Shown here one piece after another: positions 15,355 to 33,072 of a stretch of DNA of 52,723 bases; within the stretch, counting starts at the first letter, position 1; each line of letters starts with the position of its first letter. The stretch is from an uncultured Candidatus Saccharibacteria bacterium (GTDB lineage Bacteria > Patescibacteriota > Doudnabacteria > UBA920): contig CAZQZS010000005.1 in the NCBI GenBank assembly GCA_964597895.1, positions 1 through 52,723 of the forward strand. Direction: 5' to 3'. Made by a program: the position numbers and the translations under genes. Under the pieces are notes generated by a model. The model saw only the letters and a program-made list of their open reading frames with translations, made no database searches and had not been told where the DNA came from.

Positions 15355-16725
15355 ATGACAGGCAAAGAAATAATTACCGAAGTTGCCGAAGCTCCGGCTA
15401 AGGCGCTAGAGTCGGCTATGCTGCAAAGCCAGCACGCGTTGCATAGCATCAACAAGCCACTGCGCGAAGCTGAGGACTATTGGTATTCCTTGGGCCCTGG
15501 GATCACCACCGGCGCTTCTGACGATGATCCATCTGGAATCGCCACTTATTCTCAGGCGGGCGCTATGTTTGGCTATTCTTTGTTGTGGCTGGCTCCGCTC
15601 ACATTCCCGCTTATGGTGGCTGTGCAGGAAATGTGCGCCCGCATCGGTTTGGCTACAGGCAAGGGTCTTGCCGCCAATATTCGCTCACAATATCGCTTGG
15701 GGGTGCTGTATGTTCTGACCGGCATTTTATTTGTTACCAACACTTTTAACATCGGTGCAGATCTGGGCGCCATGGCAGCAGCCGGACAGCTGATTTTTCC
15801 TTCTTTCAACTTTATTACTTTTCTCGCTTTGTTTACTATTGTTAGTCTGGGGATGCAGATCTTTGTTTCGTATGCCAACTACGCTAGATTTTTAAAATAT
15901 CTTACGCTTGTTTTGTTCCTCTATGTGCTGACCGCCTTAACACTGGACAACCTTCCCTGGAATGAAATTTGGCGGAACACGATTTTGCCAAACATTACAT
16001 GGTCTAAAAGCATCATCATAATGATTTGCGCGATTCTTGGAACCACAATTTCGCCGTACTTATTTTTTTGGCAGACTGCCTCGGAGGTGGAAGCGCGCAA
16101 ACAGGAAGGCCGCATCTCGCCCAAACTTCGACATCAATTAGTGACCAAAAAAGAAGTCCGGCGCATGCGCTTGGATGTTGTAGTTGGTATGTTCATCTCA
16201 AATTTAGTGATGTTCTTCATTATTGTGACTTGCGCCGCAGTGCTATTTCCTCAGGGTGTCATGGTTGAATCAGCAGAGCAGGCGGCTTTAGCTCTTCGTC
16301 CTCTGGCGGGCAATCAAGCTTACATGCTTTTTGCTCTTGGTATTATCGGCACGGGCTTGTTGGCTGTGCCAGTATTGGCGGGCAGTTCTGCTTACGCATT
16401 GGCCGAAAGCTTCAAGTGGTCTTCAGGATTAAACAAAGGCTTGAGCCATGCTCGCGCTTTTTACGGCGTCATAATCATCGCTATGTTTTTCGGCCTACTC
16501 ATGAATTTCATCGGAATTAATCCGATTGAAGCGTTGGTTTATTCCGCTGTGTTAAACGGTATTGTGGCACCGGTAATTCTGTACTTTATAGTGAAGATCA
16601 GCTCGGACAAGAATATAATGGGCAAATGGGTAAACCGTTCGGTCGTTACCTGGATAGGGTATGGTGTGGTCGTGCTTATGACAGTGGCGGCTCTCGGCGC
16701 TATAGCTGCCTTAATTGAGCTTTGA
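15355..16725 (+). CDS. NRAMP-family divalent metal cation transporter
   Basis: GPGITTGASDDDPSGIATYSQAGA, GTTISPYLFFWQ, about 11 TM helices. Confidence 0.9.
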   Translation: MTGKEIITEVAEAPAKALESAMLQSQHALHSINKPLREAEDYWYSLGPGITTGASDDDPSGIATYSQAGAMFGYSLLWLAPLTFPLMVAVQEMCARIGLATGKGLAANIRSQYRLGVLYVLTGILFVTNTFNIGADLGAMAAAGQLIFPSFNFITFLALFTIVSLGMQIFVSYANYARFLKYLTLVLFLYVLTALTLDNLPWNEIWRNTILPNITWSKSIIIMICAILGTTISPYLFFWQTASEVEARKQEGRISPKLRHQLVTKKEVRRMRLDVVVGMFISNLVMFFIIVTCAAVLFPQGVMVESAEQAALALRPLAGNQAYMLFALGIIGTGLLAVPVLAGSSAYALAESFKWSSGLNKGLSHARAFYGVIIIAMFFGLLMNFIGINPIEALVYSAVLNGIVAPVILYFIVKISSDKNIMGKWVNRSVVTWIGYGVVVLMTVAALGAIAALIEL

Positions 16726-16776
16726 CAACACTGTTAAGTAACAGTTAACATACTGGTACCCCAAAGGAGGTGATCT

Positions 16777-17169
16777 ATGAGCGTGCAGTCAGATTTTGAC
16801 GCCATGATTAATGTCGCAAACGTATTTCGTTTCATCGTGGTTTGTGCCAGAAATTTTTTCTTGGGTGGCTCTGACGGGACCTTATCTCATGTTTATCCAG
16901 TTTGGGTGCCGCTCAGCAACCAAATTCAAAAGCAGTTACAGGTCTTAAGTGACAGAGAGCTAGACATGCTGGATGATATACTGGAGGGTGTTGGAGTTCG
17001 CCAGGGAAAGGAACTTAAGATTGAGTTGGACGACAATGGAATTTGGTTTATGACAATTAGTCCCATACTCCCAGACTTTGACCCTGGTCCGGATGACGAC
17101 GACACTGATCCTAGACCTGAATATGAGGAGCCTAAAGTTTTGAAAGCAATGGCCGCTGGAACGCACTAA
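16777..17169 (+). CDS. Hypothetical protein with acidic C-terminus
   Basis: AAGGAGGTGA SD at 16764-16773, TTGACA at 16722, terminator downstream. Confidence 0.7.
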   Translation: MSVQSDFDAMINVANVFRFIVVCARNFFLGGSDGTLSHVYPVWVPLSNQIQKQLQVLSDRELDMLDDILEGVGVRQGKELKIELDDNGIWFMTISPILPDFDPGPDDDDTDPRPEYEEPKVLKAMAAGTH

Positions 17170-17174
17170 CAATT

Positions 17175-17204
17175 GAACCCGAGAAAATTCTCGGGTTCGT
17201 TTTT
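17175..17204. terminator. Intrinsic terminator between convergent genes
   Basis: GAACCCGAGA-AAAT-TCTCGGGTTC-GTTTTT. Confidence 0.75.
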
Positions 17205-18195
17205 ATTTTAGGTTTTGATTGAAGAAATTGATTGTGCGCTGCATGACCGTTCCCCATGCCGGACCAAACTCATGCCCTTCGCCAGGGTACTCGTGCAGAA
17301 TCACTTCTTTGCCTGCTGCCTGTAGAGCATCACGCGTGCGGTAGCTCCACTCTAGAGGTACATCTGCATCATTGGTGCCATGGTTAATCATGACAGGGGA
17401 CTTAATGCGGTCAAAAAAGTTGACCGGCGACAGGTTGTCCCAAAATTCTGGATTGGTTTCCGGATCGCCATGTTGCTGTTTGATTTGCTCAACTGCTTCT
17501 GGTCGGCTCTTTGTCCAGCGGTAGTAGCTTTCGCGCACGTCGGAAGACACCGGAGCATACAGCATGTAAGCGTCTACCAATTCTGGCTGAACAACCATGA
17601 CAGCTTGAGCAATGCCGCCGCCCATGGAGTGTCCGATCATAGCGATGCGGTTGGTGTCAGCGTAAGTCAGGTTTGCTGACTTGAGTGCATAGATAGCATT
17701 AATCACATCCTCTATGTATCCGATTCTGATGTCGCCTTCTACATTGTCGTCCTTGGATGACTGTGCGTGATTGCGATAGTCAGGATGGATTACAATGTAA
17801 CCACGAGCAGCAAAGTAATCTTGTTCGCGACGCAGACCGCGACCATTGGTGTAGATGGCAGGATCGATGTAGCCATGGTTCATAATTACGACTTGGAAGG
17901 GACCGGTGCCTTTCGGTACGTTCATAATTCCCGAGATGGTAAGCTCCCCGCTTTTGTATGTAATGTAGTAGCGAGTGTAGGTAGCGGTTTCAGATTGCAC
18001 TTGGCCAATCTGCAAATCTCGGCCGTCAAATTGTTTTTGCATGAGCGCTTGCAGGGAAGTGGGGTTCACAATTTCACCGCCCTCGGTTTTGATTTGCTGG
18101 TTTGGGTTTACTGTTTGGCTGCTTTCCGTAGATTGCTGGCTGCAGCCCACTGCTATCATAGAGATAGCTATAAAAATAAGGATAATATACTTCAT
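17203..18195 (-). CDS. Alpha/beta-hydrolase lipoprotein (S9 / prolyl-oligopeptidase-like)
   Basis: Start revised from 18315 to MKYIILIFIAISMIAVG|C lipobox; GHSMGG, HGTNDADV, GEGHEF catalytic triad. Confidence 0.85.
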   Translation of the reverse strand: MKYIILIFIAISMIAVGCSQQSTESSQTVNPNQQIKTEGGEIVNPTSLQALMQKQFDGRDLQIGQVQSETATYTRYYITYKSGELTISGIMNVPKGTGPFQVVIMNHGYIDPAIYTNGRGLRREQDYFAARGYIVIHPDYRNHAQSSKDDNVEGDIRIGYIEDVINAIYALKSANLTYADTNRIAMIGHSMGGGIAQAVMVVQPELVDAYMLYAPVSSDVRESYYRWTKSRPEAVEQIKQQHGDPETNPEFWDNLSPVNFFDRIKSPVMINHGTNDADVPLEWSYRTRDALQAAGKEVILHEYPGEGHEFGPAWGTVMQRTINFFNQNLK

Positions 18196-18232
18196 ATAGT
18201 TACTATAACGCATTTTGGCAGATTTTATATCA

Positions 18233-18259
18233 AAAAAAGACCCTTTTATCGCAGGGTCA
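18233..18259 (-). terminator. Intrinsic terminator
   Basis: Minus strand GACCCT-loop-AGGGTC-T7 directly after the 71-aa ORF. Confidence 0.7.
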
Positions 18260-18472
18260 GGCGATTTCCTCATCCGATAACCTAAGTTTATATCTTTGAG
18301 GGTGGCAGAGTTCACAGCTATAATCAGGGATTATTAGCGGCCCGACTGGGCCTTGTTCTTGTTGAACAGCCCAAGCCCAAGCAAAGACCGAACCGTCAGG
18401 GATAATTGATTCATGCCGGCCAGACTCGCATCGCCAAGTGCGCTGCGGCCCCACAAAGTGTTGATCTTTCAT
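18257..18472 (-). CDS. Small Cys/His-containing protein (71 aa), possible metal-binding
   Basis: GGAGG SD 6 nt upstream of ATG 18472; C-x4-H and CELCH motifs; terminator downstream. Confidence 0.6.
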   Translation of the reverse strand: MKDQHFVGPQRTWRCESGRHESIIPDGSVFAWAWAVQQEQGPVGPLIIPDYSCELCHPQRYKLRLSDEEIA

Positions 18473-18814
18473 TAGCATCCTCCAATTGATTCAAAAATAA
18501 ATACCATCCTTACATCCTTAGCTAAAAAGAATATAACAATGGTATTTATTTTGGTGGAGATGGCTATTCGGCAAGCTCAGGGCAGGCGGGAGTCTGTTTA
18601 ACTCCCACTATACCATTAACAAACATTCCACTTCGTGAAATCTTTGTTAATGATGGACATCATCTCAAAAAACTTGGAACCCATTCAAGATTACATCCTG
18701 CGGTGGTATCTTGTGTTGTTTGATGTCCAAAGATACAGCATTTGCGGGCATACTAGCAAGTTCCAGCTATTGAAGAGCCGATATCTGTAGTTTTTTTAGA
18801 TTTTCCTCATGCTC

Positions 18815-18843
18815 TTGACATAAATCCCGAAATTCGTTATAGT
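18815..18843 (+). promoter_or_regulatory. sigma70-type promoter for islet peptide operon
   Basis: TTGACA (18815-18820)-17 nt-TATAGT (18838-18843). Confidence 0.8.
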
Positions 18844-18924
18844 TGGGCTGACCTTGGAAACTAGGTTTTTGCCTGCTATCTGGCAGACAAAGTCAATTTT
18901 ATAGACTAAGGAGGGGTCAAACGC

Positions 18925-19026
18925 ATGAAGAAATTCAAGTTTCGTTCACGAGTGCGCAAGCCGAAGGCGAAAAACCTGAAGCTCGCATCAACGTGTTCCG
19001 GCGGCGACGATAGCAACAACTGCTAA
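18925..19026 (+). CDS. 33-aa peptide, basic N-terminus and Cys-flanked C-terminus (not in ORF track)
   Basis: MKKFKFRSRVRKPKAKNLKLASTCSGGDDSNNC; TAAGGAGG SD; near-consensus promoter; downstream hairpin 19052-19082. Confidence 0.7.
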   Translation: MKKFKFRSRVRKPKAKNLKLASTCSGGDDSNNC

Positions 19027-19096
19027 TTGCTATGGAAGCCTTTCTACAACATTGGTCACTGCAAGTTTTCTTGTGTGGCCAATTATTTATATAAAG

Positions 19097-19741
19097 ATGA
19101 AGATAAATATAATATACTCGGACCAAATTAAGCTGAGTCCAGCGTTAAAGCTTAAAATCAATAAGACCATTAGGAACACTTACTCCAAGGCGGAGGATTT
19201 GATAGAGCTGAAACCGCTAACCTTTTTCGTTTATGGTAATCCCGGTATAGATGTTAAAAGAGTCGGAGGCTACACTCCATCGGGAAGCGTTATCCAAATT
19301 GCTTTAAACCCTAAATCTAGAATTACGGCGGCATATTTGGACCTGCTTTCGATGACCGTAGCTCATGAGCTTCATCACGCTGCAAGATGGAATGGGATAG
19401 GTTTTGGAGATACTCTTTTTGATGTGCTGATTAGCGAGGGTATGGGGAAACTGTTTGAAGTAGAGGTTACTGGCTTGGAATTGGATACGCTGATAGCTAA
19501 ATTCGGCACGGACGAGGTGAAGAGATGGTATTCAATAGCAAAAAAAGAGTTTCTTTCTGAAAAGTATTCTTACGCCGACTGGTTTTTTGGCTCCGAAGCC
19601 AGAGCGATTCCTAAACGGATGGGTTACGCTTTGGGTTGTTATATTGTGAGCGAATATATGAGACTCAAAAAGCTCAAGCCGTCCCAGTTAGTAAATGTCA
19701 AAAGCGACAAAATCTATGCCACGATTATCAAAGCCTTATAA
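19097..19741 (+). CDS. Putative Zn-dependent metallopeptidase (DUF2268-like gluzincin)
   Basis: TVAHELHHAAR (HExxH), LISEGMG, WFFGS...RMGYALG; start revised from 19052 to MKINIIYS. Confidence 0.8.
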   Translation: MKINIIYSDQIKLSPALKLKINKTIRNTYSKAEDLIELKPLTFFVYGNPGIDVKRVGGYTPSGSVIQIALNPKSRITAAYLDLLSMTVAHELHHAARWNGIGFGDTLFDVLISEGMGKLFEVEVTGLELDTLIAKFGTDEVKRWYSIAKKEFLSEKYSYADWFFGSEARAIPKRMGYALGCYIVSEYMRLKKLKPSQLVNVKSDKIYATIIKAL

Positions 19742-20018
19742 AATTACTTATATTGATTCGCCAAATTTTTCCTCAGGGTTTGAGCCTTTTATAAAGGAAG
19801 AAATCAATATGCTAATGAAGAATTTGGATAAGCCTAAGACTGCGATCCAATTTGTGGTTTTCGAACAACTCACCAAGGCCTCCCGAATGGGTTACGCATT
19901 AACCTCCGCTAAAGGACTTATCGGTATTGGCTTGAATAGCAAGCTAAAAAATTTAAAAGAAATTGTTAAGACAAATCTTCCGGCAGATTTAAAGATAAAA
20001 ATACAATCATTACAATGA
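19695..20018 (+). CDS. Hypothetical protein, weakly similar to N-terminal half of upstream peptidase
   Basis: Open 107 codons, start uncertain (ATG 19695 or 19716); overlaps peptidase 3' end. Confidence 0.5.
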   Translation: MSKATKSMPRLSKPYKITYIDSPNFSSGFEPFIKEEINMLMKNLDKPKTAIQFVVFEQLTKASRMGYALTSAKGLIGIGLNSKLKNLKEIVKTNLPADLKIKIQSLQ

Positions 20019-20034
20019 TTGGAGGTGAAAGCAA

Positions 20035-20118
20035 ATGACTCGTAAAGAGCGAATCAGGCGCATAGCTGAGAAGCTTTGCGCAGCTAAGTGCGCTGCCTGT
20101 CAGGGCTGCACATCATGA
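20035..20118 (+). CDS. 27-aa Cys-rich peptide (not in ORF track)
   Basis: MTRKERIRRIAEKLCAAKCAACQGCTS; GGAGGTGA SD at 20021-20028; two hairpins downstream (20119-20161). Confidence 0.7.
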   Translation: MTRKERIRRIAEKLCAAKCAACQGCTS

Positions 20119-20185
20119 AGCCGAAAGGCTAAGGGCGTAGTACATTCAATATGTGCTACGCTCAATTTTAATATATACTTAATTT

Positions 20186-20776
20186 ATGGATAATAAATCT
20201 ACAAGCAATTGGGATAATTACTACGAAAATACAAAGAATTATCCTCCAGCTCCATTATTAGTTAAAGCCTTAGAGTACGTAGAAACAATAGGCAAGGCTA
20301 TTGATATAGGTGGAGGCGGAACATTAAAAGATACCTTATTTTTACTCTCCAAAGGTTTTGATACTACTGTAGTTGATAAAGAGGATGTGATAGCAGTGTC
20401 AGTAGAAAAGGTTGGTTCTGATAAACTTCATTTTTTCGTTAGCAGTTTCTCTGATTTTGATTTCCCTGTAAATGAGTATGATTTAGCAGCTGCTATCTAC
20501 TCATTGCCTTTTACTCCGCCAAAAGATTTCGAAAGAGTGTTTGAAAAAGTTAAGTCTTCTTTAGTACAAAATGGCGTATTTTGTGGTCAGTTTTTTGGTG
20601 ATCGCGATGGATGGAAAGACAATTCTAATTTAACATTTGTTACAAAAGAGAAGGCAATGTCTATGTTAGACGGCATGGAGGTCCTCCATTTTGAAGAAAA
20701 AGAATTTGATGGCAAAACAGCCGATGGCTCGGCAAAGCATTGGCATGTGTTCGATATTATTGCTAGAAAGTTATAA
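20186..20776 (+). CDS. Class I SAM-dependent methyltransferase (TehB-like)
   Basis: AIDIGGGG motif I, acidic VVD motif II, YDLAAAIYSLPF, NGVFCGQFFG, HWHVF; TATACT 7 nt before ATG. Confidence 0.85.
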   Translation: MDNKSTSNWDNYYENTKNYPPAPLLVKALEYVETIGKAIDIGGGGTLKDTLFLLSKGFDTTVVDKEDVIAVSVEKVGSDKLHFFVSSFSDFDFPVNEYDLAAAIYSLPFTPPKDFERVFEKVKSSLVQNGVFCGQFFGDRDGWKDNSNLTFVTKEKAMSMLDGMEVLHFEEKEFDGKTADGSAKHWHVFDIIARKL

Positions 20777-20852
20777 CCTTACTTTTATTCGTAGAGCGCT
20801 TTGGCTAATTTCTCTACTAACAAAAAAAGCACTTATATAAGCGCAATTTTAG

Positions 20853-21234
20853 TGGTGGAGATGGCGGGAGTTAAACCCGCGTCCAAAACTGGTTCACCAT
20901 CTCATTGGTCACAAGCTTAGTCCGTTTAAGTGCCTTTAGTCTAACAACGGACAACTAAACTAAAGGTTGATTAACAACTATTCGGCTGAGTCGCGTTAAT
21001 CAAACGACGCAGCTATAACTCCTAATAAAGCAGTGACTCTGTGGCCGGAGTAGACAACAGGACTGCGCTTTCACCTAAGTTAGGCTACAGCAGGTGCGTA
21101 GTCAGCAGAAAATGCTGCTACGACCTTGTTCCATGCGTTAGCACGTATGAATGCTTGTAAGATTTACGAGCTTGCAAGCTGGCTCGGCTTGTATATGAAA
21201 TGATGTCAAAGTTCTGTCAAAATCCGGCATCCCC
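20853..21234 (-). ncRNA. ssrA: tmRNA (transfer-messenger RNA)
   Basis: 5' GGGGATGCCGGATTTTGAC, 3' GACGCGGGTTTAACTCCCGCCATCTCCACCA; tag ORF ANAWNKVVAAFSADYAPAVA at 21080-21142; smpB nearby. Confidence 0.95.
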
Positions 21235-21244
21235 GGTAGCTAAT

Positions 21245-21273
21245 ATTGTACGGTAAAATAAGGGTTTTGTCAA
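21245..21273 (-). promoter_or_regulatory. ssrA promoter
   Basis: Minus strand TTGACA-17 nt-TACAAT. Confidence 0.75.
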
Positions 21274-21326
21274 GGCTGTCTGTAACGATGATATAATAAA
21301 TTTAACTGAAATTAATTATCTAGATT

Positions 21327-22118
21327 ATGCCATTTGATTCAGACCCGGACCGAAAATTTAACCATGAGCATTATTCGTTTTTACCAAGCAATCATTATGA
21401 GGTTTTGGGCGTAAGCAACTCTGCTTCACCCGAAGAGATCAAGAAAGCTTACCGCCAGAAGCTAGTTGAAGGTCTGCACGAGGATAAAATTGCCGGCATG
21501 CCTGAAGGGCCGGAAAAGGATAGTGCGCAGCGAAAGTTGGAGGCACTAAAAGAAGCTCAAAGAGTGTTAGAAAACCCCCGGCTTCGGCAAATTTACGATA
21601 CGCACCTTGAAGGACAAGCTGGTAAACAGTCGGTAAGTCCAGATACTGACTCTCCAGAATCAGAAGCTGGTTCGGTTTCACCCGAGCAAGTAAAGGAGTG
21701 GTTTGATTTGGCTATGTCGCGTTTGGATTTAGCGGTTGATAAGGACGCTATGGATGCGGCGATAGCCGATTTTAACGCCAATTTCCCAGGACCTAAACCA
21801 ACCGCTGATTCAGATGGACGTCAGAGTATTCAGCGGGAAAAGCTTGTCAGCATTCCCGAAGGGGATTTTATAATTTATACCGTGGCTAACATGGGCGACA
21901 TCGCTTCACAGCGTCTGGTGGCGCGTGAACTTCCGCCATTCAAAATTGGCGACATGCTAAAAGTTAAGCGTACTAGCGGTGAAGTTGAAGAAGGCTGGCA
22001 GGTGAGCGATTTTGAAATCAAGGATGGAGTCCACGGTCCCGTGCGAATTATTGTTTTAGAAAAAGGCGATCTAATCAAAAAAGTAAATGCCAAGAATCTT
22101 AGAGAGATAAATAGCTAA
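21327..22118 (+). CDS. J-domain-like protein (HPD changed to HED) with C-terminal beta domain
   Basis: NHYEVLGVSNSASPEEIKKAYRQK..LHEDK..EAQRVLENPRLRQIYD. Confidence 0.75.
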   Translation: MPFDSDPDRKFNHEHYSFLPSNHYEVLGVSNSASPEEIKKAYRQKLVEGLHEDKIAGMPEGPEKDSAQRKLEALKEAQRVLENPRLRQIYDTHLEGQAGKQSVSPDTDSPESEAGSVSPEQVKEWFDLAMSRLDLAVDKDAMDAAIADFNANFPGPKPTADSDGRQSIQREKLVSIPEGDFIIYTVANMGDIASQRLVARELPPFKIGDMLKVKRTSGEVEEGWQVSDFEIKDGVHGPVRIIVLEKGDLIKKVNAKNLREINS

Positions 22119-22128
22119 GGGTTACATT

Positions 22129-22443
22129 ATGGAATTTAGAGAAGTAGAGCCGAGTTTTTCGGTAGAAGAGTCAATCTCGCCAGAAAAGATCTTGGGAATT
22201 ACCGAGCATGCCAATCTTGAAGAATTAGAACAGGCTTTTGCTCGCCGTATGCAAGGATTGTTAGATGAACTAATCGCTGGTCAGAGCGGAGAGGGCTTGC
22301 GGGTGATTCCGCAGCAGGAGTACGAGGCGAGGCTGGCTGAGATTCAGCATGCTTACCAAACTTTAAAAGCACGGGCAGCAGCAGAAAACGAGATTGATAC
22401 CCAGGAACTGGACCCTAATTTTCCTAATCAATTAATAAAATAA
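22129..22443 (+). CDS. Degenerate J-domain-like small protein
   Basis: PEKILGITEHANLEELEQAFARR...EIQHAYQTLK; no HPD. Confidence 0.6.
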   Translation: MEFREVEPSFSVEESISPEKILGITEHANLEELEQAFARRMQGLLDELIAGQSGEGLRVIPQQEYEARLAEIQHAYQTLKARAAAENEIDTQELDPNFPNQLIK

Positions 22444-22444
22444 A

Positions 22445-22479
22445 AAAACTCCCTTCGCTGGCAGGCGGAAGGGAGTTTT
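22445..22479. terminator. Bidirectional terminator
   Basis: AAAACTCCCTTC(GC)...GAAGGGAGTTTT between convergent genes. Confidence 0.75.
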
Positions 22480-22482
22480 AAA

Positions 22483-22908
22483 TTATTTTTTTGCTTTTTT
22501 GGCAACCTTTTTGGCTTTAGTTACCTTAACTTTTTTGACTGCGGATTTTACAGCCTTAGGCACAACTTTTTTTACGCTTTTGCCGGCTGCGTTGATTTCT
22601 GCGCTGATAATGTCCCAGTGCGCTTTGAGCTCTGCGGCTAAACCGGCCAGTTCGGGCGTATCAACATTCTTTAATCCTTTGTATTGCTTAGCTGCAGTGT
22701 CTACAATTTTGTTGTAAGTCGCTTTGGTAACTTTGCCGGCCTTGTTTACTTCTTTGGCTACGTCAGCCTGCATATCTTTTGCCCACTTGGCAATTTTTTT
22801 GCGGTTTTTAGCATTCTTCCCGGTTAGGAAGTAAGCTGCTGTGGCAGCTGCGGCAATGGCAGCTACTCCGGCTCCCACGGCGACTGCTTTTTTTTGAGAC
22901 TTGTTCAT
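22483..22908 (-). CDS. Lys/Ala-rich membrane-anchored protein (YtxH-like)
   Basis: N-terminal hydrophobic AVAVGAGVAAIAAAATAAYFL, amphipathic helices, histone-like KKA tail. Confidence 0.65.
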   Translation of the reverse strand: MNKSQKKAVAVGAGVAAIAAAATAAYFLTGKNAKNRKKIAKWAKDMQADVAKEVNKAGKVTKATYNKIVDTAAKQYKGLKNVDTPELAGLAAELKAHWDIISAEINAAGKSVKKVVPKAVKSAVKKVKVTKAKKVAKKAKK

Positions 22909-22909
22909 A

Positions 22910-23182
22910 CTACTTTTTCTTTCTTGATTGCTTGGACTTAAGTCCTAAAACAAATTTAATGAATGAGCTGAGCTTAAACCCCTCTTGTTTAATGCTTTTG
23001 CTTAGCTCTCCTAGATCCTCAACGATGAACTTTCCAGCTCGGCTGGCTTGATCAGCAATCATTTTTAGCGTGCGTAAGAACATGATGAAGTAAATCAACG
23101 CGACTACCAAAAATGCGGTGATGAAAATCACAGCAATGCCGGTGACTATGAAAAATAAATCAGTGAGTGTAAGAGAATCCAT
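22910..23182 (-). CDS. Small membrane protein (DUF948/YtxG-like)
   Basis: N-terminal TM followed by coiled segment; paired with YtxH-like gene; TGATATAAT 7 nt upstream of ATG. Confidence 0.6.
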   Translation of the reverse strand: MDSLTLTDLFFIVTGIAVIFITAFLVVALIYFIMFLRTLKMIADQASRAGKFIVEDLGELSKSIKQEGFKLSSFIKFVLGLKSKQSRKKK

Positions 23183-23203
23183 TACTGTATTATATCACAC
23201 TAG

Positions 23204-23761
23204 TTAGTACGAATATTTACGGAGCAATGTTTCTAGTAACTTTTGATAGCTACGCCGCAGTTTTTCGTCCCGGCCAATCTCTAAAACTTCATCGTTGCGC
23301 TCGGTGGCGCTTGCTGTCCAGTTATAAGAGCCGCTAACAAAGCTTTTATCGGTCACTAAAGTTTTAAGATGCATAATGGCGCTGTGGTCGTTGAATTCAA
23401 TCGGGATTCCGGCGCCTTGCAGTTCTGCAACAATTTTGGCTTGAGGCTCTAGCTCCATAGATTGCTTGCGGTCTATTAAGCCATGGACGTCCAGGCCGCG
23501 CAGTTTGGCAGCTATAAGCGCATCTTTAATATCTTCGCGGGTAAAAGTATAAATGGCAAAGTAAACATACTTGTCTGCTTGGTGAATTTGATCAATCACG
23601 AGTTCGTTGGCGGCGACTTCGCGACTGTAATAGATGCTGACCTCTCGGTTTTTGGCTTCTTGCCAGTTTGGTTGCCAAACCAAAGAGTAGTAAAGCTGGC
23701 TGAGCGCGGCGATTAAGCAGACAATAATGGTTATATAGATTAAATCGCGATTGAGTTTCAT
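23204..23761 (-). CDS. Membrane-anchored phospholipase D-family (single HKD, Nuc-like) protein
   Basis: MHLKTLVTDK...SGSYNWT; AIYTFT, RGLDV. Confidence 0.85.
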   Translation of the reverse strand: MKLNRDLIYITIIVCLIAALSQLYYSLVWQPNWQEAKNREVSIYYSREVAANELVIDQIHQADKYVYFAIYTFTREDIKDALIAAKLRGLDVHGLIDRKQSMELEPQAKIVAELQGAGIPIEFNDHSAIMHLKTLVTDKSFVSGSYNWTASATERNDEVLEIGRDEKLRRSYQKLLETLLRKYSY

Positions 23762-23812
23762 AGATTAATTGTAAAACAGGATTGCTAAATCCTGTTTCAA
23801 TTTTATTTCAAG

Positions 23813-24250
23813 TTATCGGTCGGTGGCCTTACGGGTTTCGCGCTTGGTATCGCGCTCTTTGATGTACTCGCGCTTGTCAGTTTTCTTGCGGCCGCGGCCA
23901 ACTCCGATTTTTAGCTTTACAAGATTGCGGGGACCAATGAAAATTTCTAGTGGAATAATGACGGTGCCTTTTTCTTTGCCCACCAGCTGGTTAAGCTCAC
24001 GCTTATTAAGTAGAATTTTTCGGGATTGTGTGGGTTCGTATCCTTCTTGCGGGGCATAACGGTAAGGACCGATGTGTGCATTTACCAGGCTCGCTCCTGT
24101 GGCTGATACTTTGACGTAGCTGCCTGCCAGCGAGATATTGCCTTCCTTTGCTGATTTGACCTCGCGCCCTTCCAATACTAAACCAGCATCAAAAGTATCT
24201 TTGATGTCGTAATCAAATTTGGCTCGCTTGTTCTGGGCTAAAGATTTCAT
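23813..24250 (-). CDS. smpB: SsrA-binding protein SmpB
   Basis: NKRAKFDY, AGLVLEGREVKS, RKILLNKRE, GRGRKKTDKRE. Confidence 0.97.
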   Translation of the reverse strand: MKSLAQNKRAKFDYDIKDTFDAGLVLEGREVKSAKEGNISLAGSYVKVSATGASLVNAHIGPYRYAPQEGYEPTQSRKILLNKRELNQLVGKEKGTVIIPLEIFIGPRNLVKLKIGVGRGRKKTDKREYIKERDTKRETRKATDR

Positions 24251-24309
24251 AAAGTTATTTTACCTCTCATAAGCAAATAAAAAAAGCCGGAGTGGGAGCA
24301 CTCTGGCTG

Positions 24310-24567
24310 TTATCCTGGCCATTCTGTTAACCAGGATTTATTAAAGAAGCGTTGTTGGTTATCCGAATGTTTCAGAATTTTATCCTGTTTCCTATCGGCC
24401 AGCATAACTTTAGGCACTTCATAAATCCCAGATTCTACATCCAAGACTGTGAATGGACCTGGTCCGAATCGTTCAGTTAAGCGGATAATCCAGCTGCTTT
24501 GGTCTTGAGTTCTCCAAGTCACCAGTGTCTGAAGCGGGAAGTTATTCGTTTGCTTCATTTTGAACAT
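24310..24567 (-). CDS. Small hypothetical protein (85 aa)
   Basis: Start revised to ATG 24567 with AAAGGAGGTG SD; TTGACA-17-TATAAT at 24618-24590; terminator 24279-24308. Confidence 0.7.
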   Translation of the reverse strand: MFKMKQTNNFPLQTLVTWRTQDQSSWIIRLTERFGPGPFTVLDVESGIYEVPKVMLADRKQDKILKHSDNQQRFFNKSWLTEWPG

Positions 24568-24589
24568 AAACACCTCCTTTAGGTCATAA

Positions 24590-24618
24590 ATTATAGGATA
24601 TAACACTAAACTTGTCAA
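24590..24618 (-). promoter_or_regulatory. Perfect consensus sigma70 promoter
   Basis: Minus strand TTGACA-17 nt-TATAAT. Confidence 0.8.
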
Positions 24619-24654
24619 GATAAGTGATTGTAAGATTGTGATATAATACAGGGA

Positions 24655-26391
24655 ATGAAAGCCTATATTTCTGAGCTAATTTTTGAGGCGATAAAGCAAA
24701 TTTCTCCAGACGAAGCTGGGGGTGTTTTTGCTTCTAGGCTGGTTGATGTAACTTATCCCAAAGCCGGCTTCGGCGATTATGCGTCCAATGCCGCGATGGT
24801 GTTGTTTAAAAAATTTACCAAAGCTCCGGCAGACTCTCCGACAGACTTTGCGGCCGTGTTGGCAGAAAAGGTTGCTGCGCTTGATCACCAAAAGACTTTT
24901 TCTAAGGTGGAGTCAGCCGGCGGGTTTATAAACTTTTGGTTATCAGAATCTTTTTTGGCAAACAACTTGCGCAAGATTCAGCAAAGCGGCGAGAGTTATG
25001 GGCAGAGCGATATTGGCGCTGGCAAAAAAATCTTAGTTGAATACTTTCAGCCTAACATTGCTAAACCTCTCCACTTGGGGCATCTGCGCACAGCAATCAT
25101 CGGCGACAGCATTTTCCGAATTTTAAAGTTCACGGGGCACGATGTGGAGAGTGATACTCATTTGGGCGATTGGGGTACGCAGTTTGGTTTACTGATTTTA
25201 GCCTATAAGAAGTGGGGCGATGATAATCAGATTGCTAGCGATCCGATTGATGAGCTGAATAAACTTTATGTAAAGATTAATGCGGAAATGGAAGGCGATG
25301 AATCTTTGCGTGAACAAGGCAAGCAAGAGTTTGTAAAACTAGAACAGGGCGATGAGGAGAATATTGCTCTATGGCAGCAGTTTAAGGACTGGAGCTGGAG
25401 CGAGTACAAGGTTATCTATGATGATTTAGAGATCCGCAAGTCTGATCATGATTGGCCAGAAAGTTTTTATGCCGACAAAATGCCTCAAGTTTTGGACATG
25501 CTCAGAGCTAAGGGTTTGCTAAAGGAATCGCAAGGAGCGCAAATTGTAGATTTGGAGGATCGTGGTTTAGGTGTTGCGGTTGTCGTGAAAGGAGACGGCG
25601 GCACGACTTACTTACTGCGCGATTTAGCAACTTATATTTTTCGAAAGCAAGAAGGGTTTGATAAGCAGCTTTACGTTGTAGATAATCGCCAGACTCATAC
25701 CCTGGCACAGACCTTTAAGATTTTGGAATTACTAGGCGTCATTACTTCGCCAGAAGAAGCAGTTCATATCGCCTATGGTGTTCTCAGCCTTCCGGAAGGC
25801 CAGATGAGCACGCGCAAAGGAACCATGATTGGCGCCAAAGAATTGATTAGCAAGGCCCAAGAAAAAGCTTTGGCAATTATTCAAGATAAGAATCCCGCTT
25901 TGTCTCAAAAAGAGCAGGTGGCTGGCCAAGTCATGCGCGCGGCGCTCAAGTATTTTGACCTCTCGCACAACTACAAAAGCGACATCGTGTTTACCTGGGA
26001 CAAAGCCTTGTCGTTTGAGGGAAACACTGGTCCGTATTTGCAATATACTCATGCTCGCATTAACGGAATCTTGCGCAAAGGGCAGATTCAAGACAATGAT
26101 CAGGTAGCTCAGCCTGCTGAATTAACCGAACAAGAGCTGGCAGTTTTGCGCAAGCTCAATCAGTTTACAGAAGTGGTTCAGCAAGCGGCGAGCAACTACA
26201 CTCCAAATGTTATCTGCAATTATTTATATGAGCTTTCCCAGATATTCAACTCTTTCTACGAAGCAATCCCTATTTTGAAAGAAGATGATCAGCACAAGAA
26301 GGCTTTCCGAATCGCCATGATTCGTTCAACCGCGACAGTATTAAGCACTGGACTCACCTTATTAGGAGTCCAAGCACCAAAGGAAATGTAA
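24655..26391 (+). CDS. argS: Arginine--tRNA ligase
   Basis: PNIAKPLHLGHLR, GDWGTQFG, MSTRKG, GNTGPYLQYTHAR. Confidence 0.97.
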   Translation: MKAYISELIFEAIKQISPDEAGGVFASRLVDVTYPKAGFGDYASNAAMVLFKKFTKAPADSPTDFAAVLAEKVAALDHQKTFSKVESAGGFINFWLSESFLANNLRKIQQSGESYGQSDIGAGKKILVEYFQPNIAKPLHLGHLRTAIIGDSIFRILKFTGHDVESDTHLGDWGTQFGLLILAYKKWGDDNQIASDPIDELNKLYVKINAEMEGDESLREQGKQEFVKLEQGDEENIALWQQFKDWSWSEYKVIYDDLEIRKSDHDWPESFYADKMPQVLDMLRAKGLLKESQGAQIVDLEDRGLGVAVVVKGDGGTTYLLRDLATYIFRKQEGFDKQLYVVDNRQTHTLAQTFKILELLGVITSPEEAVHIAYGVLSLPEGQMSTRKGTMIGAKELISKAQEKALAIIQDKNPALSQKEQVAGQVMRAALKYFDLSHNYKSDIVFTWDKALSFEGNTGPYLQYTHARINGILRKGQIQDNDQVAQPAELTEQELAVLRKLNQFTEVVQQAASNYTPNVICNYLYELSQIFNSFYEAIPILKEDDQHKKAFRIAMIRSTATVLSTGLTLLGVQAPKEM

Positions 26392-26392
26392 A

Positions 26393-29365
26393 ATGTCAGA
26401 AGAAACAACAAAGCCCCAATCAAATGCTCCAGACTTTAACGAACAGGAATTAGCTGTTTTAGAATTTTGGAAGGGGAATAAAATTTTTGAGAAGTCGCTT
26501 GACCAAACCAAGACTCAGGCGCCCTTCGTATTTTATGATGGCCCGCCTTTTGCTACAGGTTTACCTCATCATGGCCACATCTTAATTTCTGCTGTAAAAG
26601 ATGCCATCGGTCGTTACCAAACCATGAAGGGCAAGTATGTGCGCCGCGTTTGGGGCTGGGACTGTCATGGACTGCCGATTGAAAATATCGTAGAAGCCAA
26701 GCTTGGCATCTCTGGTAAAAAACAGATTGAAGAAATCGGAGTAGATAAATTCAACGCTACCTGCCGCGAAAGTGTTTTAACTTACGCCGAAGAATGGGGT
26801 AAGACTGTAGCGCGTATGGGCCGCTGGGTTAACTTTCAAAATTCCTACAAGACCATGGACACTACTTTTATGGAAAGCGTCTGGTGGGGAATTAAGCAGG
26901 TTTGGGACAAGGGCCTCATCTACGAAGATTTTAAGGTTTTACTGTACTGCAGCCGCTGCGAAACGCCGCTGTCTAATTTTGAGGTGGCTATGGATAACAG
27001 CTATCAAGATGTCACCGAAGAATCCGTGTTTGTAAAGTTTAAGGTCAGAGCTGGTCAGCGCATTTTGGACTTTATGACTAACGAGTCAACTTATGCTCTG
27101 GCTTGGACAACTACTCCTTGGACCCTGCCCGGTAACACAGCTTTGAATGTTGGGCCGGATATCACCTATGTAATAGTAGAGCAGAACGGGGAAAATTATA
27201 TTCTGGCCAAGGATCGCTTGGAAGTGCTGGAAGGTGATTACGAGATCAAGGCCGAACTTAGCGCCCGTTCTTTGGAAGGCATTTCGTACGAACCTCTCTA
27301 TCCTGGAGTGATTACCGATGAAGCTGGTACTGCTCATAAGATTTATTTAGAAGATTTCGTAACCACTGAGGACGGTACCGGTATTGTTCACAATGCTGCC
27401 ATGTACGGTGAAGAAGACTTTGCCGCCGCCAAACGCCGCAATTTGCCCCGTCAGCAAATGTTGGACAACAAAGGCGAGTACATGGATGTAGCTCCGGAAA
27501 GCTTGCGCGGCAAGTTCTTTAAGGATGCTGACCGAATTGTGCTAGATGAGCTGTCCGCAAAGAACCTAGTTTATAAAACTCTTCATTATACTCACAGCTA
27601 TCCGCATTGCTGGCGCTGCGGCACGCCTTTATATTATTCCGCCTTGTCTGCTTGGTTTATTAATATTCAGCAGATAAAGTCTAGACTCCTTGAGCTGAAC
27701 GAGAATATCAATTGGTATCCTGAGCACCTTAAGCATGGCCGTTTTGCCCAAGGCATTCAAAATGCGCCGGACTGGAACATTTCCCGCAATCGTTACTGGG
27801 CCACTGCTTTGCCGTTTTGGAAGTGCGAAAGTGAAGACTGTGATAATAAAGTTTGTGTCGGTTCGGTGGAAGAACTTAAAGCACACAGCACTAATTTTGA
27901 AGAAGTTTATCCAAATTATGACCCAAATGACTTACAAGCTTTGGATCTACACCGCCCATATATAGACAAAATTAAATTGCGATGTGAGAAGTGCGAAGGT
28001 ACTATGGCGCGCATCCCCGAAGTCGTGGACTGTTGGGTGGAGTCAGCGAGCATGCCGTTTGCCGAACTGCACGCGCCGTTTGAGAATCAGGACTTGTTGG
28101 AACAGCGTTTGCCTGCTGATTTCGTTGCCGAATATATTCCGCAAACTCGCGCTTGGTTTTACGTCATGCATGTCTTTAGCACGATTATTTTTGACAAAGC
28201 TCCTTTCCGCAACGTTGTCACTACCGGAACAGTCTTGGCCGAAGATGGCGCTAAGATGTCGAAATCCAAAAAGAACTTTGAAGACCCGAACCTGTTAATT
28301 GAGCGTTACGGTGTTGACCCGATGCGCTTCTATCTGTTAACTAGTCCGGTGGTTGTCGGCGAGGATTTAAACTTCTCCGAAACCGGCATTGCGGAGGTTA
28401 ACAGGAAGCTCAGTCTCATTTTTTGGAACACCTGGCAGTTTTACAGAATGTACAGCAAAGACACGGTAAGCTCGGACGTGCCGAATGTAAGCCACAGTCT
28501 TGATTCCTGGATGTTAGCGAAGCTGTTTGCGACCCACGCTGAGGTTACTAAATATTTAGATAGTTACAACACCGTCAAAGCTGGCCGGGCGATTAGCGCT
28601 TTGATTACCGAGCTGTCTACCTGGTACGTGCGCCGCAGCCGTGATCGCATGAAACTTGGCAATGAAGATTCGCGCACAGCTTTGCGTGTACTCGGATACA
28701 GTCTAGTTGAAATCAGCAAAATGCTGGCGCCATTCATGCCGTATCTTAGCGAAGTAATTTATCGTGATTTAACCAGTCAGGAATCAGTTCACTTAGCTTC
28801 TTGGACCGAGGCTCGCGAGTATCGTCAAAGCATTTTGGACGAGATGACTGCTGCTCGTCAGATTGTTGAACTGGGTTTATCGTTGCGCAAAGAGCAAAAT
28901 TTAAAGGTTCGCCAGCCTCTAGCTGAATTGCAATATTCTTTTAGTGACGAAGAACTATCCTTGGATGAGTTCATGCAGCAGATAATTGCAGAAGAGCTTA
29001 ATGTTAAAAAGGTGACCAATACCGAGCTTATTTCTCGCAGTAACTGGGTGAGCAAAGAAGCTATGGGTTGTTCTGTGGCACTTAATACCGAGCTAACCGA
29101 AGAACTTAAAACCGAAGGCATGGCCCGTGATTTAGAGCGAGCTATTCAGGATTTGCGAAAAAAGAGCGGTCTAAAAGTCGGACAAATAGTTGATTTGTAT
29201 TACAATAGCTCAGACGATCAACTGGTGCATGCTTTAACAAACATGGTTGACCGCAAAAAGACTTTTATCAATCAGATCAAGACTAATTTAGAGGTTGATG
29301 CGGACTATGAGATTCAGGCAACAGTCAATGGGAGTGCAATTTGGTTGGGATTGGTTCAAGTTTAG
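26393..29365 (+). CDS. ileS: Isoleucine--tRNA ligase, type 2 (archaeal/eukaryotic-like)
   Basis: DGPPFATGLPHHGH, GWDCHGLP, WTTTPWTLP, DWNISRNRYW, KMSKS; C-terminus lacks the type 1 zinc finger. Confidence 0.95.
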   Translation: MSEETTKPQSNAPDFNEQELAVLEFWKGNKIFEKSLDQTKTQAPFVFYDGPPFATGLPHHGHILISAVKDAIGRYQTMKGKYVRRVWGWDCHGLPIENIVEAKLGISGKKQIEEIGVDKFNATCRESVLTYAEEWGKTVARMGRWVNFQNSYKTMDTTFMESVWWGIKQVWDKGLIYEDFKVLLYCSRCETPLSNFEVAMDNSYQDVTEESVFVKFKVRAGQRILDFMTNESTYALAWTTTPWTLPGNTALNVGPDITYVIVEQNGENYILAKDRLEVLEGDYEIKAELSARSLEGISYEPLYPGVITDEAGTAHKIYLEDFVTTEDGTGIVHNAAMYGEEDFAAAKRRNLPRQQMLDNKGEYMDVAPESLRGKFFKDADRIVLDELSAKNLVYKTLHYTHSYPHCWRCGTPLYYSALSAWFINIQQIKSRLLELNENINWYPEHLKHGRFAQGIQNAPDWNISRNRYWATALPFWKCESEDCDNKVCVGSVEELKAHSTNFEEVYPNYDPNDLQALDLHRPYIDKIKLRCEKCEGTMARIPEVVDCWVESASMPFAELHAPFENQDLLEQRLPADFVAEYIPQTRAWFYVMHVFSTIIFDKAPFRNVVTTGTVLAEDGAKMSKSKKNFEDPNLLIERYGVDPMRFYLLTSPVVVGEDLNFSETGIAEVNRKLSLIFWNTWQFYRMYSKDTVSSDVPNVSHSLDSWMLAKLFATHAEVTKYLDSYNTVKAGRAISALITELSTWYVRRSRDRMKLGNEDSRTALRVLGYSLVEISKMLAPFMPYLSEVIYRDLTSQESVHLASWTEAREYRQSILDEMTAARQIVELGLSLRKEQNLKVRQPLAELQYSFSDEELSLDEFMQQIIAEELNVKKVTNTELISRSNWVSKEAMGCSVALNTELTEELKTEGMARDLERAIQDLRKKSGLKVGQIVDLYYNSSDDQLVHALTNMVDRKKTFINQIKTNLEVDADYEIQATVNGSAIWLGLVQV

Positions 29366-29404
29366 TTTCGCTCAGCTTGGTTTTTGGAATATCAACTTAA
29401 CGTT

Positions 29405-29433
29405 AGAACCTCCCATCTGGGAGGTTCTTTGTT
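29405..29433 (+). terminator. Intrinsic terminator after ileS
   Basis: AGAACCTCCC-ATCT-GGGAGGTTCT-TTGTTT. Confidence 0.75.
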
Positions 29434-29448
29434 TGATATAATGAATTT

Positions 29449-30159
29449 ATGAAAGCCCAGGATTTAATGACCAACAAAGTGATTACCGTGACGCCCGACA
29501 CATTGGTGAGCGAGGTGGCTGACTTGCTGCATAAGTACCATTACTCTGGTTTGCCGGTAGTTAATGGCGAAGGTCGGGTTTTGGGTACGATTTCCGAACG
29601 GGATTTTATTACGGCCGACTCAAATTTGTATCTGCCGACCTATATTCAAATGCTGTCTAACGTTGACTTTGTACAGGGAGCAGGGAAAAAGTTGCCACAT
29701 GTGGTGGAGCAGGTCGTGAATGCCAAGGCTAAAGATATTATGAACCAGGCCGTACCTTTTGCTCGTCCTGACACTTCCATCGAAGAGCTGGCGCGGATGT
29801 TTGCCGAGCAGCGAGTCAATCCAATTCCGGTCACAGACAGTACCAATAAGCTTATTGGTATAATCTCGCGCAGTGACTTAATCAAGTTTTTTTCGCCAAG
29901 CATGGTCCGCGCCAACTACATCCCAGAACAAAGGCCTGTGCCCCAGCCTAGACTGATAGATTCACAGGTAGAGTTTACACATAACCATTTTACATCCAGA
30001 TTTGCGTATGTCGCAAAAGCTCGCGCTAATATTTGGCTGACAGCTGCAGTGGTGTTGTTTATCGTGGGGTTTGTGGCCGGCATCATCTATGTGGCTGACC
30101 CGAATGTTTTGCGTGGCCGCAATGCATTGGAATATTCACCAACTTCAACCAAGCAATAA
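29449..30159 (+). CDS. CBS-pair protein with C-terminal membrane anchor
   Basis: Two CBS repeats (DLMTNKVITV...SGLPVV; DIMNQ...NPIPV), TM WLTAAVVLFIVGFVAGIIYV. Confidence 0.85.
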   Translation: MKAQDLMTNKVITVTPDTLVSEVADLLHKYHYSGLPVVNGEGRVLGTISERDFITADSNLYLPTYIQMLSNVDFVQGAGKKLPHVVEQVVNAKAKDIMNQAVPFARPDTSIEELARMFAEQRVNPIPVTDSTNKLIGIISRSDLIKFFSPSMVRANYIPEQRPVPQPRLIDSQVEFTHNHFTSRFAYVAKARANIWLTAAVVLFIVGFVAGIIYVADPNVLRGRNALEYSPTSTKQ

Positions 30160-30160
30160 C

Positions 30161-30871
30161 GTGTCCAAAGAATTAATTTTACAGGGTTACATCATTAAGT
30201 CGCAAGATATTGGTGAGCACGATGTTCTGCTCACTTTTTTTTCGTTGGAGCATGGTAAGTTACGCGTCATTGTAAAGTCGGCCAAGAAGCTTACTAGTAG
30301 ATTGGCTGGGCGTCTTCAAGCTGCAGCTAAGATTGAGATTACCTTAGCTGGCAATCACTCCTTGCCGAAGTTAATTGGTGCCTCGGTTCAAGAAAGTTTT
30401 CATGACATTGTGCAAAGCCAGGATCGCATTGCCGTAGTGATGGTTTTGCAAGAATATACCAACCGAGCTTTGGCTGATCTCCAGCCGAATGAGCAATTAT
30501 TTGAGAATTATAGCCAAGCCCTCCGCCAGCTTGCTGTGGCTGATACCAGTGAGTGCCTTCGGATTGCTACGTTCTTTATTGTACAAACTTTACAGGCAAT
30601 TGGCGTGGCGCCTAGATTGCTGCAACAGGAATATACTGGCGCAAAGCTTTGGCTAAATTTTGATGACGGCAGTTTTATCGTAAATTCAGGGACCGGTCAG
30701 CAGTCAGAAGTGACACTTAAAGTGTATGAGCTGTTTGTAAATCTTTATCAGGCCGGCGACAGGGAAACGTATGATGATGTAGTTTGGCAAAAATTGTTAA
30801 AGTTGCTGAATGATTTTAGCGGATATCAGCTGGAAAGGCAGCTCCGCGCTGCAGAATATTTTTTAAGTTAG
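30161..30871 (+). CDS. recO: DNA repair protein RecO
   Basis: Start revised to GTG 30161; GYIIKSQDIGEHDVLLTFFSLEHGKL, AKKLTSRLAG OB-fold. Confidence 0.85.
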   Translation: MSKELILQGYIIKSQDIGEHDVLLTFFSLEHGKLRVIVKSAKKLTSRLAGRLQAAAKIEITLAGNHSLPKLIGASVQESFHDIVQSQDRIAVVMVLQEYTNRALADLQPNEQLFENYSQALRQLAVADTSECLRIATFFIVQTLQAIGVAPRLLQQEYTGAKLWLNFDDGSFIVNSGTGQQSEVTLKVYELFVNLYQAGDRETYDDVVWQKLLKLLNDFSGYQLERQLRAAEYFLS

Positions 30872-30893
30872 CGTGATATAATAAATTTAAGCT

Positions 30894-32711: not shown

Positions 32712-32721
32712 GTTACAAAGG

Positions 32722-32748
32722 AAGCCACCTAGAGTATAGGTGGCTTTT
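32722..32748 (+). terminator. Intrinsic terminator
   Basis: AAGCCACCTA-loop-TAGGTGGCTT-TT. Confidence 0.7.
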
Positions 32749-32802
32749 GCAATAAAAAAGCCGCAGAAATTAGCCGCGGCTTGAATAAAATAAAGACCAA
32801 AC

Positions 32803-33072
32803 TTACCTTCGTCTTCCGATTTCGCTTTCGATCTTGTTGATTGAATCACGGTAGCTATGGGCATAGCAAGCATCTGGTCCAGTCTCACCATCAGTGAGCC
32901 ACTGACCTTCTTTTAAGGCTGTTAGGACTTCTAGCAGTTCCGCCGTTTCAATACCACTTATGGAACCATTGACCAACTGTTCGGCTTGATGGGCTTTGTC
33001 GTGGATGTCATGGAATGTGCCAACTGTTATTTTGATCGACATTTCGCCCAGTAACTCATTTCTATCGTGCAT
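32803..33072 (-). CDS. Small hypothetical protein (89 aa)
   Basis: GGAGG SD 9 nt upstream; standalone with downstream hairpin. Confidence 0.6.
   Translation of the reverse strand: MHDRNELLGEMSIKITVGTFHDIHDKAHQAEQLVNGSISGIETAELLEVLTALKEGQWLTDGETGPDACYAHSYRDSINKIESEIGRRR

Follow-up and report, generated by a model that had tools for sequence, protein, structure and literature searches.

The short open reading frame (ORF) at 18925-19026, here called peptide 1, is a real gene and is probably (we put the probability at roughly 70%) the precursor gene of a LAP/TOMM cassette in a Doudnabacteria-like Patescibacterium, the maturase of which has been lost or replaced in the window. The window, meaning the whole 52,723-nt stretch of DNA that was analyzed, has a GC content of 44.5% and encodes an ArgRS that shares about 70% identity with proteins labeled Candidatus Doudnabacteria (Patescibacteria/CPR). 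The anatomy of the gene, its conservation, the cluster context in relatives and the absence of the maturase from the window are direct observations. The following features make up the locus:

18794..20020, plus strand: recombining cassette (promoter, precursor gene, hairpin, DUF2268 peptidase gene and 107-aa gene), from alignment with relatives
18815..18843, plus strand: sigma-70-type promoter, TTGACA-17-TATAGT, 11/12 consensus matches
18908..18915, plus strand: Shine-Dalgarno (SD) site TAAGGAGG, read directly, 9 nt upstream of the ATG
18925..19026, plus strand: peptide 1, putative LAP/TOMM precursor, 33-codon ORF with its ATG at 18925
19051..19093, plus strand: terminator-like hairpin and U-rich tract, with the stem-loop at 19051-19083 (fold compared with shuffles)
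19097..19741, plus strand: DUF2268 zinc metallopeptidase, probable leader peptidase (Pfam PF10026, E = 2e-23)
19695..20018, plus strand: 107-aa ORF, last gene of the cassette; an alternative start (ATG 19809) would give 69 aa

Anatomy of the peptide 1 gene

Peptide 1 (MKKFKFRSRVRKPKAKNLKLASTCSGGDDSNNC, 33 aa) has a basic N terminus, with ten Lys or Arg among residues 1 to 19, and its last ten residues are CSGGDDSNNC, with Cys at both ends and two Asp inside. Its layout is about that of a basic leader (residues 1 to 22) followed by a core, (S)TCSGGDDSNNC. The core, STCSGGDDSNNC, contains two Cys, three Ser and one Thr, giving the combination of leader and Cys/Ser/Thr core sought in a LAP precursor. 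The SD site, the run of basic residues and the Cys-bounded acidic C-terminal decapeptide, all claimed in the initial annotation of this DNA, were confirmed in the sequence; the near-consensus promoter had gone unmentioned there. No signal peptide was found in peptide 1, and exact look-up of peptide 1 and of the methyltransferase encoded further downstream in the window matched no record.

A GGAGG motif at the right spacing precedes 7 of the 715 small ORFs of the window, and four of these seven, peptide 1 among them, are intergenic; because such intergenic ORFs are so few (4/715), the anatomy of peptide 1 goes beyond chance. SD (4-mer) motifs were found upstream of 8 of the 62 large ORFs in the window, a rarity that makes the SD site of peptide 1 worthy of note and the peptidase gene, which has no SD site, normal for this DNA. 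Both precursor-like small ORFs of the window (peptide 1 and peptide 2, described below) have a strong SD site despite the rarity of such sites before large ORFs. An intergenic 89-aa ORF at 32803-33072 (minus strand) also carries a GGAGG SD site at correct spacing, and a tRNA gene at positions 1-55 (minus strand; Rfam RF00005, 37.8 bits) is partial because the window begins within it.

Conservation of the cassette among close relatives

The close relatives are metagenome contigs (L001-L007 and L090-L092) with peptidases of 87-100% protein identity. Over the cassette, identity to the window is 99.9% for L090 (1 mismatch in 1,227 nt), 95.5% for L007 and ∼90-91% for L001-L006 and L092. A reading frame broken where the peptidase is conserved had been named in advance as the observation that would tell against a peptide gene; the frame is intact and the 33-aa peptide 100% identical in 10 of 10 related contigs, and the peptidase protein differs by up to 13% among relatives that share this identical peptide. 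Between the window and the most divergent allele, the peptide 1 ORF differs by two substitutions (2 synonymous, 0 nonsynonymous), and with two substitutions only this test of conservation has little power; the peptidase gene differs from the same allele at 14-15% of bases (dS 0.68, dN 0.069, dN/dS ∼0.10). Synonymous divergence is thus 0.10 in the peptide 1 ORF versus 0.68 in the peptidase gene, with 0 of 24 nt changed in the spacer after the peptide 1 stop codon, and the cause of this low divergence of synonymous sites and spacer could be recombination mosaicism or RNA-level constraint as opposed to protein selection. The cassette is a mosaic in its divergence: 0.6% upstream, 10.9% over promoter plus 5′ untranslated region (UTR), 14-15% in the peptidase gene and 5% in the 107-aa gene, and homology to the relatives ends at 20020, just past the stop codon of the 107-aa gene. 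The promoter hexamers, SD site and hairpin are kept in relatives, both hexamers being unchanged across all eight aligned sequences.

The block at 18651-18814, only 0.6% diverged from the L001/L092 allele, lies beside the 11-15% diverged promoter/UTR and peptidase. It contains most of a 51-aa ORF (18635-18790) that matched no family, and an 18-nt inverted repeat (18614-18652) is located at its left edge.

Further relatives were sought with the peptidase in a single-protein scan of genome contigs and in a scan of JGI metagenome contigs, neither of which returned any, and a degenerate back-translated leader pattern had no match in JGI metagenomes. As the JGI scans were empty, no copies of peptide 1 of intermediate divergence were available for comparison.

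SagB-YcaO fusion genes in relatives

Directly 3′ of the cassette, L001, L003 and L092 encode a 729-aa SagB-YcaO fusion, and every related contig that extends far enough has the peptide-peptidase-107-aa cassette followed by this gene. The L090 contig ends inside the downstream gene, the 594 residues that it encodes being 100% identical to the L001 fusion, and the L007 contig, also truncated, retains just the N-terminal nitroreductase part of its downstream gene. The fusion consists of an N-terminal domain, a SagB FMN-dehydrogenase and a YcaO cyclodehydratase. It scored 92.5 bits against TIGR03605 SagB (cut-off 78.4), matched Pfam YcaO (E = 1e-43) and Nitroreductase, and matched the SagD-type maturase model TIGR03604 (E = 2e-40); its sequence matches in the PDB include McbC (6gos_C, E = 1.4e-7, over the SagB domain), LynD, TruD and MusD. 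The N-terminal 140 aa had no match in Pfam, so no RRE is demonstrable there. A SagB-type dehydrogenase and a YcaO cyclodehydratase are the pair of enzymes by which TOMM/LAP peptides acquire thiazole and oxazole rings. The LAP loci of L001, L003 and L092 also contain a UbiE-like methyltransferase.

This context bears on the first proposal for peptide 1, namely a leader with a disulfide or cyclic core released by the adjacent peptidase. A leader-plus-core gene tied to that peptidase stands, the pair being co-conserved in ten loci; the disulfide or simple cyclization gives way to a probable conversion of Cys, Ser or Thr to azoles, to which the SagB-YcaO context points.

In some relatives a second LAP cluster is located just upstream (L090 1-1300; L002 1-1203), in which a 715-aa YcaO fusion precedes the precursor MKRRKKNVRVVPYSTTTASSTCGSSCNHSSR. 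This precursor gene has a GGAGG SD site and a terminator; its cluster itself contains no peptidase gene, and the DUF2268 cassette is ∼2.7 kb away.

A strain-variable island without a maturase

No YcaO or SagB was found in the 52.7-kb window by tblastn (best E = 1.6). Of the genomic context that marks a LAP precursor, the window therefore has neither an adjacent YcaO gene nor a SagB/McbC dehydrogenase; an adjacent YcaO gene was found in L001, L003, L090 and L092. Beyond the cassette, the window carries the following:

20021..20844, plus strand: window-specific segment of 824 bp, where the sister strain has the fusion and a UbiE-like methyltransferase
20035..20118, plus strand: peptide 2, precursor-like small ORF (MTRKERIRRIAEKLCAAKCAACQGCTS), with SD site GGAGGTGA 7 nt upstream
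20186..20776, plus strand: TehB-like SAM methyltransferase, with a homologue in L014 (9172-9753, E = 1e-52)
20853..21234, minus strand: tmRNA gene, with the right edge of the strain-variable island (18559-20844) at its 3′ end

Contig L092 is 99.9% identical to the window over 16668-18558 and 99.5% identical over 20845-36390. Between these matching blocks it has 4.3 kb of different content: a 91%-identical allele of the cassette, the YcaO fusion and the UbiE-like methyltransferase. A gap of 8 nt separates the right edge of the island from the tmRNA 3′ end, identity with L092 resuming at 20845. An independent 1.4-kb contig (L091) is 100% identical over 18610-20050 and spans the junction; the arrangement is therefore no obvious artifact of assembly. 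No integrase was found at the island, a search for att-like direct repeats flanking it gave short chance repeats only, and neither an exporter nor an immunity gene was identified nearby.

Peptide 2 takes exactly the position that the YcaO fusion occupies in relatives and, among the loci seen, is present in the window only; it is followed by a very strong hairpin (∼20133-20163, z = −6.2). The TehB-like methyltransferase has its only homologue among the fetched loci in L014, a Paceibacteria genome in which a LAP cluster is ordered YcaO fusion, precursor MQKPLITVLRRPYAEDKTTGRNSANGCNSSCGRCSG, HELCH protease and methyltransferase. The placement of this homologue suggests that the window methyltransferase may be a LAP tailoring enzyme, and with it the window would hold several LAP accessory parts without the core enzyme.

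With YcaO and SagB absent, azole chemistry is impossible from the window locus alone, and replacement of the maturase leaves the precursor orphaned unless a YcaO is encoded outside the 52.7 kb. Loss or replacement was recent, given that the L090 cassette differs at one position and yet retains the fusion. The promoter, SD site, ORF and peptidase gene are all intact in the window though the maturase is gone, the cassette recombines as a unit apart from the YcaO gene, and a ten-residue loop is bounded by two Cys, all of which would suit a YcaO-independent product: a 33-aa cationic/acidic bipartite peptide or signal, trimmed by DUF2268 and either unmodified or closed by a Cys24-Cys33 disulfide. 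However, the near-identity to the maturase-bearing L090 cassette (1 nt in 1,227) means that intact genes in the window are uninformative on function without a maturase. Moreover, the YcaO fusion is present in all other occurrences that could be checked, and a cytoplasmic disulfide is improbable for a peptide with no signal peptide and no identified export gene nearby. We therefore consider a YcaO-independent peptide unlikely and retain the reading of peptide 1 as a LAP precursor separated from its maturase.

The wider fusion family and its precursors

Alignment of the fusion was used to fetch 80 genome loci, mostly from Patescibacteria, in which the fusion family is widespread. A DUF2268 gene is located beside (within ∼1 kb of) the YcaO fusion in 42 of these 80 loci, and ∼30 of the 80 have an adjacent ORF of 30-75 aa with a basic N terminus and a Cys/Ser/Gly-rich tail, many of them with an SD site. 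Leader motifs recur among the family precursors ("KKFSWKIT" and "VKVxxRPY"). Precursor sequences are otherwise hypervariable between lineages, and the protease active site is invariant. Saccharibacteria members of the YcaO-DUF2268 family (L033, L038, L054, L055 and L029) have precursors of 60-75 aa that consist almost entirely of Gly/Cys repeats.

Among 14,506 ORFs, the best nonself matches of peptide 1 were the L046 and L042 precursors, of the "KKFSWK...KP...CSSG...C" type. Composition-preserving shuffles reached the alignment score of peptide 1 in 1 of 2,000 cases for L046, 5 of 2,000 for L042 and 21 of 2,000 for L048 (uncorrected, six comparisons). When profile hidden Markov models (HMMs) of two precursor groups were run against the 715 small ORFs of the window, peptide 1 ranked second with one profile at a nonsignificant E value of 0.18 and had no match to the other; a scan of peptide 1 against NCBIfam matched no model. 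The core of peptide 1 is also poorer in cyclizable residues than those of most relatives (two Cys and three Ser/Thr, plus two Asp). Given this weak homology to the family precursors, peptide 1 is assigned to the class mainly by genomic context.

The hairpin downstream of peptide 1

A hairpin at 19052-19082 followed by a U-rich tract had been noted before the peptidase gene; both were found, with the stem-loop extending over 19051-19083. It has 14 bp, a single bulge and a UUUU loop, is followed by UUAUUUAUAU, and starts after a gap of ∼25 nt from the stop codon of peptide 1. The fold of the hairpin with its flanks (19020-19110) gave z = −1.95 against shuffles, and that of the 70 nt 3′ of the stop codon gave z = −3.1. 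A simple terminator consensus scan made no call on the hairpin. The U-tract is interrupted. The divergent allele differs from the window hairpin at three positions, two in the loop and one in the stem (G19078A, which turns a U.G pair into U-A).

The arrangement is general. We tested 31 small ORFs (peptide 1 twice, as window and L001 alleles, peptide 2 of the window and 28 from other loci), of which 28 have a strong hairpin, usually with a U-tract, on their 3′ side (mean z = −4.0). ORF and hairpin are also found together where the peptide gene is convergent to the peptidase gene or follows the YcaO gene. Retention of the hairpin even at convergent peptide genes argues against an attenuator and for a terminator or stabilizer that sets a high ratio of precursor to enzyme. 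The initial annotation had offered an attenuator as one alternative, in which translation of the small ORF would govern the 19051-19083 terminator and hence expression of the peptidase, and a small ORF with a terminator-like hairpin immediately 5′ of an SD-less peptidase gene does invite that reading. Yet SD scarcity is general in this genome, 25 nt separate the stop codon from the hairpin, the ORF has no codon run for one regulatory amino acid, and in the predicted fold the terminator forms independently, with no competing antiterminator or other alternative pairing. In L042, L046, L048, L052, L066, L071 and L077, moreover, the ORF-hairpin unit follows a YcaO gene or is convergent to the peptidase gene, positions from which it cannot attenuate the latter. 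An attenuator leader peptide is therefore very unlikely.

The conserved synonymous sites of the ORF and the unchanged 24-nt spacer (dS 0.10 versus 0.68; 0/24), together with a whole peptide 1 transcript that folds somewhat better than shuffles (z = −2.25), could alternatively be taken as marks of a noncoding, structured or regulatory RNA conserved at the nucleotide level. But no Rfam family was found at the locus at gathering threshold, and raising the E value to 10 over 18250-19250 gave chance-level matches only; the SD site is perfect and ideally spaced, and the ∼30 distant loci have analogous ORFs with unrelated nucleotides that keep the same protein-level design and position. We find a noncoding element scarcely credible beside a translated LAP precursor.

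Sequestration of the SD site by the post-stop spacer was also considered. The pairing is present in the minimum free energy (MFE) fold but is broken by an A at a paired SD position in the L001-type allele (inspection of the alignment), and it was rejected.

The DUF2268 peptidase and the 107-aa ORF

The gene after the hairpin encodes a peptidase, as initially annotated. It scored 83.3 bits against PF10026 (cut-off 23.6) and has HELHH at residues 90-94 and Glu114; across 28 sequences, H90, E91, H94 and E114 do not vary. AF2 modeled the protein with confidence (pLDDT 96), and the best fold matches of the model are gluzincins (the M1 aminopeptidase N family, thermolysin and LTA4H), with weak but consistent scores (TMq 0.46-0.55, E = 2.5e-3 to 1.3e-2). 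No N-terminal signal is evident in the peptidase sequence. The DUF2268 family is not LAP specific: homologues P0005 and P0010 (Deinococcus), at 36-38% identity, are not beside YcaO. In the cassette, co-location with maturase and precursor makes DUF2268 the probable leader peptidase. A full-text literature search found no paper tying DUF2268 to YcaO or RiPPs.

A small peptide gene closely linked to a metalloprotease gene, the two remaining paired after loss of the maturase, could also be expected if peptide 1 were a propeptide or inhibitor of the DUF2268 protease acting in trans, the other alternative raised at the outset. Nothing in the analysis supports inhibition, however. The peptides are hypervariable between lineages against an invariant protease active site, and over ∼30 loci their Cys/Ser/Gly-rich tails and linkage to YcaO fit substrates of heterocyclization instead, which renders an inhibitor highly improbable.

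The 107-aa ORF is conserved in the close clade only. Its protein matched no family in Pfam or NCBIfam, formed one cluster among 1.84 billion representatives, and gave an unusable AF2 model (pLDDT 41).

Proposed pathway and its implications

In relatives with a complete cluster, the strong promoter and strong SD site would drive high expression of the 33-aa precursor. The hairpin and U-tract would end or stabilize most transcripts, with only read-through reaching the peptidase genes, and precursor would thereby exceed enzyme. The 729-aa fusion would then turn Cys, Ser or Thr in the TCSGG..S..C core into thiazole or oxazole rings, and the DUF2268 gluzincin, presumably in the cytoplasm, would cut off the basic leader.

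A broader interpretation goes further, and we regard it as tentative and on the doubtful side. According to this, the 1.2-kb cassette would be a unit that recombines independently and that persists and works with no YcaO of its own, for instance served by a maturase elsewhere in the genome or yielding a YcaO-independent peptide; DUF2268 would be a dedicated, formerly unrecognized family of RiPP leader peptidases of Patescibacteria; and the ssrA-adjacent island would be a hotspot at which alleles of precursor and peptidase are shuffled against maturase and methyltransferase modules between near-identical strains.

Patescibacteria (CPR) have tiny genomes with very few natural-product genes, and each of their LAP clusters is a candidate mediator of an episymbiotic or competitive lifestyle. 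For one LAP cluster family a concrete 33-aa precursor is now available. The co-location of DUF2268 with the fusion in 42 genomes gives this uncharacterized domain a testable role in RiPP leader processing, and the existence of near-identical strains with and without the maturase in a tmRNA-adjacent island bears on how LAP clusters are gained and lost.

Comparison with known systems

The locus in relatives resembles that of microcin B17 (McbA; McbBCD) in combining a precursor made of a leader and a Gly/Ser/Cys core with a YcaO cyclodehydratase and an FMN dehydrogenase. Microcin B17 has B, C and D as separate proteins and relies on the housekeeping protease TldD/E for leader removal; the relatives, in contrast, have one fused enzyme, no recognizable E1-like partner and a dedicated DUF2268 gluzincin in the putative role of leader peptidase. 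The Cys-Gly-repeat peptides of the L054 type match heterocycloanthracin/sonorensin (TIGR03601) weakly (E = 0.014; 16 bits, cut-off 35), whereas peptide 1 has no match to this model, is much shorter and lacks CxG repeats. Plantazolicin-type LAP clusters include a tailoring methyltransferase, and a SAM methyltransferase beside LAP genes (UbiE-like in L001, L003 and L092; TehB-like in the window and L014) is a likeness in gene content. In lantibiotic, sactipeptide and lasso-peptide operons a terminator hairpin is placed between the structural gene, which it directly follows, and the processing genes; the hairpin predicted after the precursor gene, here in 28 of 31 small ORFs, is similar.

The closest known systems are LAP clusters of the CPR that combine YcaO, a nitroreductase and a peptidase with a neighboring precursor, of which 110 have been described in 93 genomes (Sharrar et al. 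2020, mBio, PMC7298704). As presented in the parts of that study that describe the clusters, they belong to the same phylogenetic group and have the same gene set as the relatives of peptide 1. The example precursor given there, from Microgenomates, is 84 aa long compared with 33 aa here, and the enzyme is named in those parts just "peptidase", with no family, whereas here it belongs to DUF2268, the maturation enzymes are fused and the window copy has no maturase. Peptide 1 thus most likely joins the already known CPR LAP clusters with no new mechanism, and what it adds is modestly new: DUF2268 as a recurrent peptidase partner, and presence or absence of the maturase at the level of strains.
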